Both the position numbers and the translations under genes were made by a program. From a virus, in IMG/VR virus record IMGVR_UViG_3300045988_131186, positions 1 to 38,576 of that record: 38,576 nucleotides of DNA; one strand, given 5' to 3'. This document shows positions 36,401-38,576 of the stretch, piece by piece (position 1 is the first letter of the stretch; every line of letters starts with the position of its first letter). The notes under the pieces are model-generated. The model was not told the DNA's origin, did no database searches, and worked only from the letters and a program-made list of their open reading frames with translations.

Positions 36401-38274
36401 GACGCAGCAAATACTACAACATGCGCTTGCCGGAGCGCGGCGCACGGGAGGGCGAGGCAAACGATGCGGCGGATATCGAGGATCTGACCTATGATCTTGA
36501 AATAATCGACAAAGAAATGGAGCGCCAGCGTCTGGAAGATGTGCGGATGGAAAAGGAAAAAGCCACAAAGCTGGAATTGTCGCAGCATAAATCCGCCGCC
36601 GTGCTGGACCACCCGGATAACAGTGTCACGGACGCAAAGCTCGGACAGCGCACGGTACTGACGACCAGCGGCCCGTTGCAAACGCTGCTGACGGCCATCG
36701 GCAACGCAATCAAGGCCATCAGCGGTGCGGACACATGGAATGGCACGCCCGCCACCACGCTGACGGCGGCAAGGGCACATATGGACAGCAAGAGTAATCC
36801 GCACGGTGTGACAAAGACACAGGTTGGGCTTGGAAATGCGGACAATACCAGCGATGCAAACAAACCCGTAAGCACCGCACAGGCCGCAGCCATCAAAGTG
36901 GTGCAGGATGACGTGAATGCGCACAAGAGCGATACATCAAATCCACATGCTGTTACCAAGGCACAGGTTGGGCTTGGCAGTGTGTCGAATGTTCCCACGA
37001 ACGACCAGACGCCCACCTATACCGCCGCATCTGCGCCGGCGGCTCTGGCCAGTGGTGAAAAGCTCTCTGTGGCCTTTGGAAAGCTGGCCGCATCGGTGTC
37101 GGCGCTCATCGCACATCTGGCGGACGGTGTGAAGCATATCACCGCCGCCGAACGCACGAAATGGAACGGGGCTGTTGACGCCCAGCACAGCCATATCAAT
37201 AAGGCCTTGCTGGATACCTACACGCAAACCGAGGCGAACCTTGCGGCGGCGGTAACAGCCAAACACAGCCATTCCAATAAAAATGCGCTGGACGGCATTA
37301 CAGCGGCGATGGTGACTACCTGGAACACGGTGAGCAGCAAGCTGCCACTGGCGGGCGGCACGTTGACGGGTTTTCTTACGCTACATGCAGCACCTACAGC
37401 CAACATGCACGCGGCTACAAAAAAGTATGTGGATGACAAAATGGCGGCTTCCGGCAGCGGCGACATGCTGAAGAGCGTATATGACACCAACGAGGACGGC
37501 GTAGTAGATAAAGCTGAGACTGTTCCATGGTCGGGCGTGACGGGAAAACCATCGACATTCCCGCCGTCAACGCACACACATACAAAAAACCAGATCACGG
37601 ATTTTCCCGCGTCTTTGAAGAATCCCAACGCGCTGACCATCAGCCTGAACGGAACCAGCCAGGGCGCCTATGACGGAAGCGCGGCAAAATCCATCAATAT
37701 TACTGCGGCCGGCGTGGGGGCTTTGCCGAGCGAGGGGACAGCCGCAGACGCAAACAAACTGGGTGGACATTCTCCCCAATGGTGGATGCCCACGGGCATG
37801 GTTGTGCCATATGCAGGCGCTGCCGCTCCTGATGGCTGGCTGCTTTGCCAAGGGCAAGCGGTCTCCCGCACCACCTATGCACAGCTCTTTTCTGTTATCG
37901 GTACAACCTACGGTTCCGGTGACGGATCTACCACTTTCAACCTCCCCGACATGCGCGGTCGTGTGGCGGTAGGTTCCGATGCTAATTTAGGTGCGAAAGC
38001 AGGCGCAAAAACTCACGCTCTCACGAATGCAGAATTGCCCGTGCTGAGCGGGGCCATCGTTATGCACAGTTCAAATGTGGGGACGAATATTCAGACAGTA
38101 AATGGAGTGTTTAAGCCAGCAATCACAAACAATGGGAAATATCGTGGCGGTGGCGAACTGGTGAGCGATGTCGGGACTAGTTCTGTCGGCCATTTTTCGT
38201 TAAACATAGGCGGAGGACAGGCTATGTCACTGACTCAGCCGTCGTTATATCTTAATTATTTGATTAAGGTATAA
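36397..38274 (+). CDS. Tail fibre protein with a phage tail-collar domain; its C-terminal 93 codons lie in the invertible segment
   Basis: 625 aa. ATGA overlap with the previous gene. Fibre repeats SNPH(G/A)VTK(T/A)QVGLG (2 copies) and KHSHxNK. Collar motif MVVPYAGAAAPDGWLLCQGQAVSRTTYAQLFSVIGTTYGSGDGSTTFNLPDMRGR. C-terminal QPSLYLNYLIKV. Confidence 0.85.
   Translation: MRRSKYYNMRLPERGAREGEANDAADIEDLTYDLEIIDKEMERQRLEDVRMEKEKATKLELSQHKSAAVLDHPDNSVTDAKLGQRTVLTTSGPLQTLLTAIGNAIKAISGADTWNGTPATTLTAARAHMDSKSNPHGVTKTQVGLGNADNTSDANKPVSTAQAAAIKVVQDDVNAHKSDTSNPHAVTKAQVGLGSVSNVPTNDQTPTYTAASAPAALASGEKLSVAFGKLAASVSALIAHLADGVKHITAAERTKWNGAVDAQHSHINKALLDTYTQTEANLAAAVTAKHSHSNKNALDGITAAMVTTWNTVSSKLPLAGGTLTGFLTLHAAPTANMHAATKKYVDDKMAASGSGDMLKSVYDTNEDGVVDKAETVPWSGVTGKPSTFPPSTHTHTKNQITDFPASLKNPNALTISLNGTSQGAYDGSAAKSINITAAGVGALPSEGTAADANKLGGHSPQWWMPTGMVVPYAGAAAPDGWLLCQGQAVSRTTYAQLFSVIGTTYGSGDGSTTFNLPDMRGRVAVGSDANLGAKAGAKTHALTNAELPVLSGAIVMHSSNVGTNIQTVNGVFKPAITNNGKYRGGGELVSDVGTSSVGHFSLNIGGGQAMSLTQPSLYLNYLIKV
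37974..37995 (+). repeat. Inverted repeat IR-L (22 bp, ttccgatgctaatttaggtgcg) inside the tail-fibre CDS
   Basis: Perfect reverse complement of 38470-38491. Encodes SDANLGA in frame. Has a central mini-dyad ctaa-t-ttag. Confidence 0.95.
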
Positions 38275-38469
38275 GCTTGGTTGACGGTTTTCGTGAGCTG
38301 CACCGTTTCCCGAAGAACCTGTGGTGACGGCCCCGGCAGGCTCTTGACGCACTTGAAAGCTATTACTTCCCTCTTGAGTGCCCATTAGGTTTTTATAATC
38401 AATTAAAGTCGTGTGGTTATGAGGTCCATTTTGCGCGGCTGTCAGGCTGACTGATTGAACACCTGCGGC
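38245..38469 (-). other. Silent alternative tail-fibre C-terminal cassette (75 codons beyond IR-R)
   Basis: The - strand frame runs in phase out of IR-R: (SDANLGA)AAGVQSVSLTAAQNGPHNHTTLIDYKNLMG...AAHENRQPSLYLNQIIKI. It carries collar-domain hallmarks (PHNH, HENRQP..LN.IIK). It has no ATG or RBS of its own; the track's start is a TTG just beyond IR-R. Confidence 0.75.
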
Positions 38470-38491
38470 CGCACCTAAATTAGCATCGGAA
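38470..38491 (-). repeat. Inverted repeat IR-R (22 bp), reverse complement of IR-L
   Basis: cgcacctaaattagcatcggaa. It ends 48 bp upstream of the recombinase ATG (38540, equivalent to 63). Its distal 14 bp also appear at window positions 1-14. Confidence 0.95.
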
Positions 38492-38576
38492 GCAAACAGC
38501 CTGTACAATAGCAGTAAAAGCTATTGGGAGGGCTGTAAAATGGCAAGCAAGAAAGGCAAGAAAAATTTAAAAAAAT
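38478..38576. repeat. Second copy of the 99-bp terminal overlap (identical to 1-99)
   Basis: Identical to the first 99 nt. Contains the first 37 nt of the recombinase CDS. Confidence 0.95.

Follow-up and report, generated by a model that had tools for sequence, protein, structure and literature searches.

We analysed IMG/VR virus record IMGVR_UViG_3300045988_131186, whose whole stretch of 38,576 nucleotides (nt) is called the window below, and found that its tail-fibre gene ends in an array best explained as a site-specific inversion switch. This switch would exchange the receptor-binding tip of a prophage tail fibre and would belong to a family of multi-segment shufflons, a reading to which we assign a probability of about 0.85. 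The constant part of the fibre gene runs into one of two cassettes that lie tail to tail between two inverted copies of a 14-bp core, and a tyrosine recombinase gene follows the second copy. Among related prophages, the array occurs in nature in inverted and permuted states and is linked to a gene for this recombinase or a homologue of it. An earlier, sequence-only reading of the window had proposed a fibre inversion driven by the tyrosine recombinase, and comparison with related loci supports this proposal, in which catalysis by the enzyme is deduced from its position.

The window represents a circular contig whose ends overlap by 99 bp: position 1 is equivalent to 38478, which leaves 38,477 bp of unique sequence. 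Feature coordinates are collected in Table 1. As the earlier reading had claimed, the fibre gene contains one arm of a perfect 22-bp inverted repeat, TTCCGATGCTAATTTAGGTGCG, which encodes fibre residues S527-A533 immediately after FNLPDMRGRVAVG and whose reverse complement (right inverted repeat, IR-R) lies downstream of the gene. No further copy was present in the window even at 3 mismatches, with 0 expected from 100 shuffles, and the similarity between the two arms continues imperfectly out to 30 nt. The recombinase start codon, 48 bp past IR-R, recurs at 38540 in the terminal overlap, which places the gene where it had been predicted. On the minus strand, the sequence reads SDANLGAAAGVQ...HENRQPSLYLNQIIKI from 38490 to a stop codon at 38247-38245 in the same phase; the silent in-frame cassette that had been proposed is thus present, and its 81-aa product, written from the right repeat, is SDANLGAAAGVQSV...HENRQPSLYLNQIIKI followed by the stop. 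The earlier reading did not mention that the two cassette tails share 30 bp, with codons in phase on either strand (LYLNYLIKV and stop on the plus strand, LYLNQIIKI and stop on the minus strand); a near-palindrome encodes the conserved end motif and makes this possible. The Pfam Collar domain covers residues 467-523 of the fibre (E 8e-27), and the C-terminal 194 aa align to the solved fibre tips 8KEC and T4 gp12, with the collar part and the extreme C-terminal strand conserved and the stretch between them variable. By this alignment, the cassettes would supply the exposed tip together with the fold-closing strand. A terminator scan of 37600-38576 found no terminator. The constant shaft also carries 43-nt direct repeats of 81% identity at 36796-36982, encoding NPH(G/A)VTK(T/A)QVGLG, and 23-nt repeats at 37180-37280, encoding HSH(I/S)NK; these internal direct repeats are ordinary fibre shaft repeats.

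The array was compared across 86 loci (L001-L086), gathered by a 22-mer scan of IMG/VR, by flank and core scans of IMG/VR and of metagenome contigs, and from contigs carrying the exact recombinase. Both junctions that had been predicted for the flipped state were found exactly in public assemblies. The junction of the constant part with cassette B, GCGGTAGGTTCCGATGCTAATTTAGGTGCGGCCGCAGGTGTTCAATCAGTCAGCC (a 55-mer), is present in L016, L020, L057 and L066, and that of cassette A with the recombinase side, GAGCGTGAGTTTTTGCGCCTGCTTTCGCACCTAAATTAGCATCGGAAGCAAACAGCCTG (a 59-mer), in L007 and L075. In two integrated prophages, L016 and L020, which align collinearly to the window at ~97% identity, the 521 bp matching window positions 37971-38491 are inverted at 99.4-99.8% identity; the segment was found inverted in L007 too. 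In L016 the gene caller reported a 607-aa Collar protein that corresponds to the B isoform, so tip B is the expressed form there, and the in-frame fusion foreseen for the flipped state is borne out. Several pairs of very similar loci differ in arrangement. L020 and L066 have 0 mismatches over 3000 and 3297 flanking nt and differ by the flip of one segment; L057 and L068, which are 99.9% identical, are set apart by inversion of the entire block of two segments; between L055 and L075 both segments differ; and L021 and L022, two National Center for Biotechnology Information (NCBI) genome assemblies, share one set of six cassettes that stand in another order and orientation in each. Point mutation is outpaced by rearrangement here. 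The breakpoints coincide exactly with 14-bp core edges, so that alternative arrangements broken at the sites are seen across assemblies, with mixing inside single samples suggested by the contig ends described next. These comparisons show that the segment inverts in nature.

The ends of contigs bear on the state of the array within samples. Eight contigs stop at a distance of exactly 55 nt from a core's flank-side edge, and four others run past a core on its flank side and stop after exactly 41 (55 - 14) nt, distances that are accounted for by a k = 55 de Bruijn graph in which a cassette or flank is shared with two partners and the common sequence is the core. The window itself opens with the right core's first base; its 99-nt overlap is made up of the core (14 nt) plus 85 nt of the recombinase-side flank. 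This suggests that its ends reflect the branch node of a k = 99 assembly graph and not an arbitrary circular cut, for which we estimate the chance of a start at a core edge at ~1 in 10,000. The contig ends would point to mixtures of arrangements within samples.

The same observation feeds the alternative that survives best, which concerns anatomy only and is compatible with the inversion mechanism. The real phage may carry at least two segments, for example [A B] and [E C′], and the one-segment circle of 38,477 bp would then be either an assembler shortcut, in which the constant-A junction of one isomer was stitched to the B-recombinase junction of another, or a genuine deletion product between directly repeated cores. 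We consider this a serious possibility, somewhat short of an even chance. Close relatives with an identical recombinase have 2-3 segments: two were found in L016, L020, L057 and L066 (B A followed by E C′ or C′ E) and in L055 and L068 (E C′ followed by A B), all with 96-97% identical fibres. Two contigs resemble walks through an assembly graph, since the recombinase flank stands at either end of L007 and segment E/C′ appears twice in L024, and the start of the window at a core edge suggests a graph branch as well. The flanks of L018 and L057 are 99.9% identical around one and two segments, respectively. Against a shortcut, one-segment forms have been assembled independently many times, including L018 on a 230-kb contig, L006, L071 and L086 (constant part joined to [A B], in a recombinase lineage of 49% identity) and L040, L051 and L080; one-segment forms could therefore be real. 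The description of the array as a minimal, shufflon-like switch holds in its second half, and "minimal" is doubtful in view of the relatives with 2-3 segments.

What the related arrays share is the core and the build of the cassettes. The 14-bp TTCCGATGCTAATT is identical in every copy across the 86 loci and the flanks vary on both sides. Thus, the sequence-only reading was right that a repeat is there, and the conserved functional site is this core and not the full 22 bp; the 8 bp of the repeat beyond it match only because cassettes A and B both start with LGA. Related prophages carry 2-7 cores each in alternating orientation, internal cores stand back to back with a 12-bp palindrome between them (such as GCTGGTACCAGC), and each segment of ~480-510 bp holds two convergent cassettes. 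An in-frame open cassette of 64-99 aa follows 199 of the 203 cores that have enough 3′ sequence, and 193 of these 199 finish in QPSxxLxx[ILVM][ILVM]Kx and a stop; core and cassette counts are slightly inflated by duplicate contigs (L005 = L011 = L053; L008 = L025). The four remaining cassettes are broken by early stops at 20-46 aa (L017 3911-4436; L042 231 and 671) and may be decaying or may reflect sequence errors in metagenome-assembled genomes or contigs. The cassettes form at least 21 clusters. Across the loci, the constant flank GGCGGTAGG plus core joins at least 12 different cassettes, and cassette A, the expressed tip of the window, lies in silent positions elsewhere (for example in L001, L004, L005, L007 and L016). 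With a constant 5′ part and promoterless alternative 3′ cassettes, each led by one short site in either orientation, these arrays have the anatomy of a shufflon in the functional sense, the window having 2 cores and 2 cassettes. Between genera the core varies at positions 3 and 6 only (TTCCGAT, TTGCGAT, TTACGGT) and is uniform within each element, and GCTAATT is constant in the cores of all three genera, a pattern that would fit a 7-bp overlap region plus a conserved binding arm. The other arm would be poorly conserved, with only A at -3 and G at -2, an asymmetry like that of sfx sites.

The recombinase gene accompanies the array. Every locus in which the far end of the array is present has a recombinase homologue (100, 88, 76 or ~49-50% identity) starting 49-99 bp past the last core, and in three genera homologues of 46-100% identity start ~50-110 bp past it. 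Pygmaiobacter massiliensis has a 56% homologue after four nested sites (+ + - -) with the core TTGCGATGCTAATT, and Subdoligranulum variabile a 46% homologue after six nested sites (+ + + - - -) with the core TTACGGTGCTAATT. The P. massiliensis homologue was the single return of a scan of genome contigs with the recombinase as query. The S. variabile array lies at 1689-3386 of L087 (OY725880.1, a record of 214,755 bp labelled plasmid 46), where the cassettes end in ...PPYLAQNIIVRAL; two more S. variabile records labelled plasmids matched as well, and these records may be phage-plasmids or mislabelled contigs. A second recombinase lineage, ~49-50% identical and with the proximal flank AAGGGTCTTTGC, was found in L006, L054, L065, L071, L073, L074, L078 and L086. 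Arrays of this lineage use the identical 14-bp core, and several contain cassettes that occur with the first lineage too, among them A and B in L006, L071 and L086. Homologues of ~40% identity adjoin a helix-turn-helix regulator and non-phage genes with no Collar gene nearby, a setting expected of ordinary integrases. One candidate for an array without a recombinase, L047, was rejected: cassette A is cut there by unrelated DNA. At L047 1381-1700, cassette A joined to the constant part is broken after ~200 bp and the interrupting DNA holds an opposite-strand open reading frame (ORF) of 620 aa, which is an insertion, a rearrangement or a chimeric contig.

An identical recombinase, array and lysis module was found with two different tail modules. 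In the first (L015, L017, L019 and L021-L023), Collar proteins of 147-209 aa come after four more genes (379, 217, 343 and 134 aa), and in the second (L016, L018, L020 and L024) a fibre of 606-625 aa comes after a 637-aa protein. Because the same recombinase and array are joined to both, the switch module appears to move between phage types.

The recombinase belongs to the tyrosine site-specific recombinase superfamily. Its ORF matches Pfam Phage_integrase (PF00589) with E 4e-19, and the catalytic residues R200, K239, H306, R309, H332 and Y342 are invariant in an alignment of 30 homologues. An AlphaFold2 model (predicted local distance difference test score 86) places strands 11-19 and 25-32 and helix 35-49, a beta-beta-alpha arrangement, before the core-binding domain, so that a small N-terminal domain of this kind is predicted; the stretch is conserved with the ~40% homologues that have ordinary-integrase-like neighbourhoods. 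The best structural matches are Tn1549 Int (6EN2, E 2e-15) and full-length lambda Int (1Z1G, ~366 aligned columns), a match was found at sequence level too, and the protein is assigned to PHROG 1, a group of integrase type. Among NCBIfam families no specific match was found, only sub-threshold Xer and integron-integrase matches. Within the prophage, the gene sits between the fibre gene and the lysis genes. Three genes 3′ of it, a 174-aa ORF (1961-2485, plus strand) matches tail-fibre PHROGs, which embeds the recombinase among tail genes and not at a module boundary.

The site of integration lies elsewhere. In 11 integrated prophage loci, homology to the window breaks off at 4957-4964, ~210 bp from where the gene for a large serine recombinase has its 3′ end; past this point, L015 and L018 carry a truncated comM-like Mg-chelatase gene. 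The serine recombinase is similar to CcrB and XisF and is identical to NCBI nr record DAR00996.1 (Caudoviricetes), named integrase. Because prophage homology ends beside its gene and the tyrosine enzyme is internal, the serine enzyme is, as had been proposed, the likely integrase, and it probably integrates the phage near position 4960. No small serine invertase gene was found beside the array among the ORFs of the window, where the only serine recombinase is this 586-aa enzyme of the large type, ~5 kb off. The linkage argues strongly that the adjacent tyrosine recombinase catalyses the inversion.

The tyrosine recombinase could instead be a second integrase or have another role, with inversion carried out by a host invertase or by the phage serine recombinase. 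NCBI labels it "site-specific integrase", and its integrase-type group, Tn1549- and lambda-like fold, N-terminal beta-beta-alpha domain and integrase-like 40% homologues are in line with that alternative. We nevertheless regard it as improbable: the gene lies inside the prophage and not at its end, the homology boundary adjoins the serine recombinase gene, the array has no small serine invertase gene next to it, and all homologues of at least 46% identity, in three genera and with differing tail modules, start within ~50-110 bp of the last core.

Rarer still, in our judgement, is the chance that there is no programmed switch and that the arrangements are old, fixed mosaics made by general homologous recombination between phages, or a fossil array. 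Tail-fibre genes are known hot spots of mosaicism, and the comparison covered assembled contigs from different samples; however, the 14-bp core at whose edges the breakpoints lie offers too little length for RecA-type exchange, genomes with 0 mismatches in 6.3 kb of flank differ in segment orientation, 98% of the silent cassettes are still open, and the recombinase is intact, its exact sequence being present in 4573 blocks of the contig collection. A pure assembly artefact, with inverted repeats misjoined and no real alternative state, is very unlikely. In its favour, L007 and L024 are clear graph walks and many contigs break at cores, but a 14-22-bp repeat is shorter than the k-mers used (55-141) and cannot by itself confuse a de Bruijn graph, junction k-mers must be present in the reads, and the alternative states occur in dozens of independent assemblies from several assemblers, NCBI genome assemblies included, where they carry complete in-frame fibre ORFs of 606, 607, 615 or 625 aa.

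Several points weigh against a site-specific inversion switch of receptor-binding tips or limit how far it can be pressed. We infer catalysis by the tyrosine recombinase from adjacency and co-occurrence alone, and tips A and B would only presumably bind different receptors. A search for a dyad-symmetric site around the core gave only a weak AGC / 7 bp / GCT symmetry, and the layout of arm and overlap is therefore hypothetical. Directly repeated cores exist in multi-segment relatives, where something would have to prevent deletion between them. Co-resident related prophages, each fixed in a different arrangement, could give the same pattern of contig ends, and the window as assembled holds one segment and may not mirror the real genome.

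The mechanism that we propose for the switch is as follows. The constant 526 codons of the fibre, through the first part of the tail collar, end at the 14-bp core, read as SDAN. Each alternative tip is a promoterless cassette of 64-99 codons that opens with the core and ends in QPSLYLNxxIKx. The tyrosine recombinase, encoded 48 bp 3′ of the array, would bind the cores and pair two inverted copies, and strand exchange would proceed via a Holliday junction within the core, with TTCCGAT as the overlap and GCTAATT as the binding arm; the position of the crossover is deduced from the pattern of core variation. Inversion of the 490-bp segment would then replace tip A (625-aa fibre) by tip B (607-aa fibre), with a presumed effect on adsorption and host range. 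In relatives with 2-3 segments or nested sites, inversion at any inverted pair could shuffle up to 6 or more tips. Integration near window position 4960 would be left to the large serine recombinase.

Beyond this switch, two recombinase lineages that are only 49% identical share the 14-bp core and the cassettes. It is conceivable, and at present rather doubtful, that they represent a family of tyrosine invertases of integrase descent which has no kinship with Rci, probably arose by a recruitment separate from that of the Rin recombinase discussed below, retains an arm-type N-terminal domain and runs a shared pool of at least 21 tip types across Oscillospiraceae prophages. If so, the occurrence of 1-3 segments in near-identical prophages would mean that deletion and capture of segments between direct repeats are also among the activities of the enzyme, and tips would be exchanged between co-resident prophages in an integron-like manner, beyond inversion.

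The 48-bp leader of the recombinase gene contains a promoter-like TTAGCA-18-TACAAT at 38480-38509, with its -35 hexamer within the right core; the match to the consensus is weak, the scan having returned 2 sites against 0.9 expected. A hairpin with a 7-bp stem, CAATAGC-7-GCTATTG (38506-38526), and then the ribosome binding site GGGAGGG (38526-38532) follow. Recombinase binding could conceivably autoregulate its own gene. A 647-aa ORF (6890-8833, minus strand) that shares 44 bp with the 5′ end of the serine recombinase gene combines, according to Pfam, FtsK/SpoIIIE ATPase and FtsK-gamma domains with an Mrr-type restriction endonuclease domain. This architecture is odd for a gene of a lysogeny module, and the protein could have a defence or exclusion function. 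Megablast of window positions 1-25000 against 50,697 GenBank phages gave no match, so that an annotated close relative is lacking there; the terminase has relatives at protein level only, in phages of Clostridium, Clostridioides and Streptococcus. NCBI entries for the exact recombinase protein bear the names Ruthenibacterium lactatiformans and Subdoligranulum sp., which point to R. lactatiformans as the host; assemblies of this species with the prophage include GCA_016937435.1 and GCA_024462565.1. The prophage is common in the human gut.

Table 1. Features of the fibre switch and the integration module in the 38,576-nt window
Feature	Position	Strand	Basis
Tail-fibre gene as assembled, isoform A, 625 aa	36397..38274	+	ORF and translation, Pfam Collar
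Constant fibre part, codons 1-526, ending ...RGRVAVG	36397..37973	+	Same flank joined to varied cassettes in relatives
Left 14-bp core TTCCGATGCTAATT, encoding (G)SDAN	37974..37987	+	Exact repeat; 22-bp left inverted repeat (IR-L) = 37974-37995
Cassette A, expressed tip, 99 aa, SDANLGAKAGAKTH...QPSLYLNYLIKV and stop	37975..38274	+	Translation
Invertible segment between cores, 490 bp (474 bp between 22-bp repeats)	37988..38477	.	Inverted in L016, L020, L007
Cassette-tail overlap, 30 bp, near-palindrome	38245..38274	.	Read from sequence
Cassette B, silent tip, 81 aa from SDAN, SDANLGAAAGVQSVSLTAAQNGPHNH...QPSLYLNQIIKI and stop	38245..38490	-	Minus-strand reading
Right 14-bp core, inverted	38478..38491	-	22-bp IR-R = 38470-38491
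Recombinase-gene leader, 48 bp	38492..38539	+	Sequence; consensus scan
Tyrosine recombinase, putative shufflon invertase, 372 aa	63..1181	+	Pfam PF00589, PF22022, PF14659
Approximate attP crossover	4957..4965	.	Homology end of integrated prophages
Large serine recombinase, likely integrase, 586 aa	5173..6933	-	Pfam Resolvase, Recombinase, Zn_ribbon_recom

The closest known system is the Rin shufflon of Bifidobacterium breve and B. longum prophages, the first reported case of a phage-encoded tyrosine-family invertase acting on receptor-binding protein (RBP) cassettes (Mavrich et al. 2018, PMC6109161). The sequence-only reading had left Rin out and so overstated the novelty of the switch. A Rin-type shufflon was reported in Eggerthella lenta prophages in 2022 (PMC8778435). 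As in Rin, a phage-encoded tyrosine recombinase, distinct from the phage integrase, flanks promoterless cassettes for RBP C-termini, a short asymmetric repeat (in Rin the 11-bp rix, TTCCCTAACCC) precedes each cassette, the constant N-terminal gene lies at the other side of the array, and the hosts are Gram-positive bacteria of the human gut. The two are set apart here by the published description of Rin and by its site. Rin is described as XerD-like and without an arm-type N-terminal domain, whereas the window enzyme is integrase-like and has a predicted one; the 11-bp rix differs from the 14-bp TTCCGATGCTAATT; and Rin acts on a TP901-1-type RBP and not on a Collar-domain fibre. In addition, the window cassettes form tail-to-tail pairs with a 30-bp overlap, unlike those of Rin, the hosts are Clostridia (Oscillospiraceae) instead of Actinobacteria, and for its integration the phage has a serine enzyme here, as against a tyrosine enzyme in the Rin phages.

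The earlier reading had drawn a link to the Rci shufflon. Rci acts at 19-bp sfx sites and its target is pilV. The R64/IncI1 system resembles the present one in that a tyrosine recombinase gene lies beside a multiple-inversion array of convergent C-terminal cassette pairs, the asymmetric sites have one conserved and one variable part, the tip of an adhesin is changed, and direct repeats are present with inversion apparently dominant. It differs in its target, the conjugative pilus adhesin PilV in place of a phage Collar fibre, and in its site, to which the core is unrelated. The link does not extend to the enzyme, which is of integrase type: a tblastn search against 72,556 PLSDB plasmids (E <= 1e-3) matched 192 records and detected no similarity to Rci. 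Escherichia is not among the ten commonest organism names of these matches, and Salmonella is listed with a single record, a 473-kb plasmid.

The Gin (Mu), Cin (P1), Pin (e14) and Min (p15B) switches are driven by small serine invertases with ~26-bp sites and a Fis-dependent enhancer. In these systems and in the Gin-type shufflon of FRphi (PMC13418256), a fibre C-terminus is likewise swapped by site-specific inversion, with several segments in Min and FRphi, but the enzyme next to the array studied here is a tyrosine recombinase. A 2026 preprint describes, in BV01-like phages of Phocaeicola vulgatus, a shufflon with a ~1.7-kb array of three cassettes that overlaps the fibre 3′ end and has 10-bp directional motifs, all configurations being seen in reads (PMC13596623). 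The system is alike in being a recombinase-flanked fibre array of a temperate gut phage and differs in its Bacteroidota host, its motif TGGGAGAACT and its carbohydrate-binding-type fibre. Integrases of the Tn916/Tn1549 and lambda types give the best structural match and share the catalytic residues, but the window enzyme is internal to the prophage and fixed beside a cassette array, with the homology boundary elsewhere. In systematic screens, the targets of programmed inversions include tail-fibre proteins, and the neighbouring genes include those for tyrosine recombinases (PMC9881135). In the literature searched, no published description of this shufflon family in Clostridia was found; the kind of switch is already known from Rin, and the Ruthenibacterium prophage family itself appears undescribed.

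All in all, these results extend tyrosine-recombinase RBP shufflons from Actinobacteria, where Rin was found, to Clostridia. Comparative data resolve the system unusually well, and it is easily testable, with a precise 14-bp core, core variants that co-vary in three genera and predicted junctions. Assemblies break or take shortcuts at the array, and viral contig catalogues consequently misreport the fibre gene; the annotation of the recombinase as "integrase", for its part, inflates integrase counts and hides the real integration module. Fibre tips decide which cells can be adsorbed. A prophage with 2 to 6 or more tips on offer, out of at least 21 in the pool, would be hedged against variation in the surface of its host, and this one is very common in the gut.

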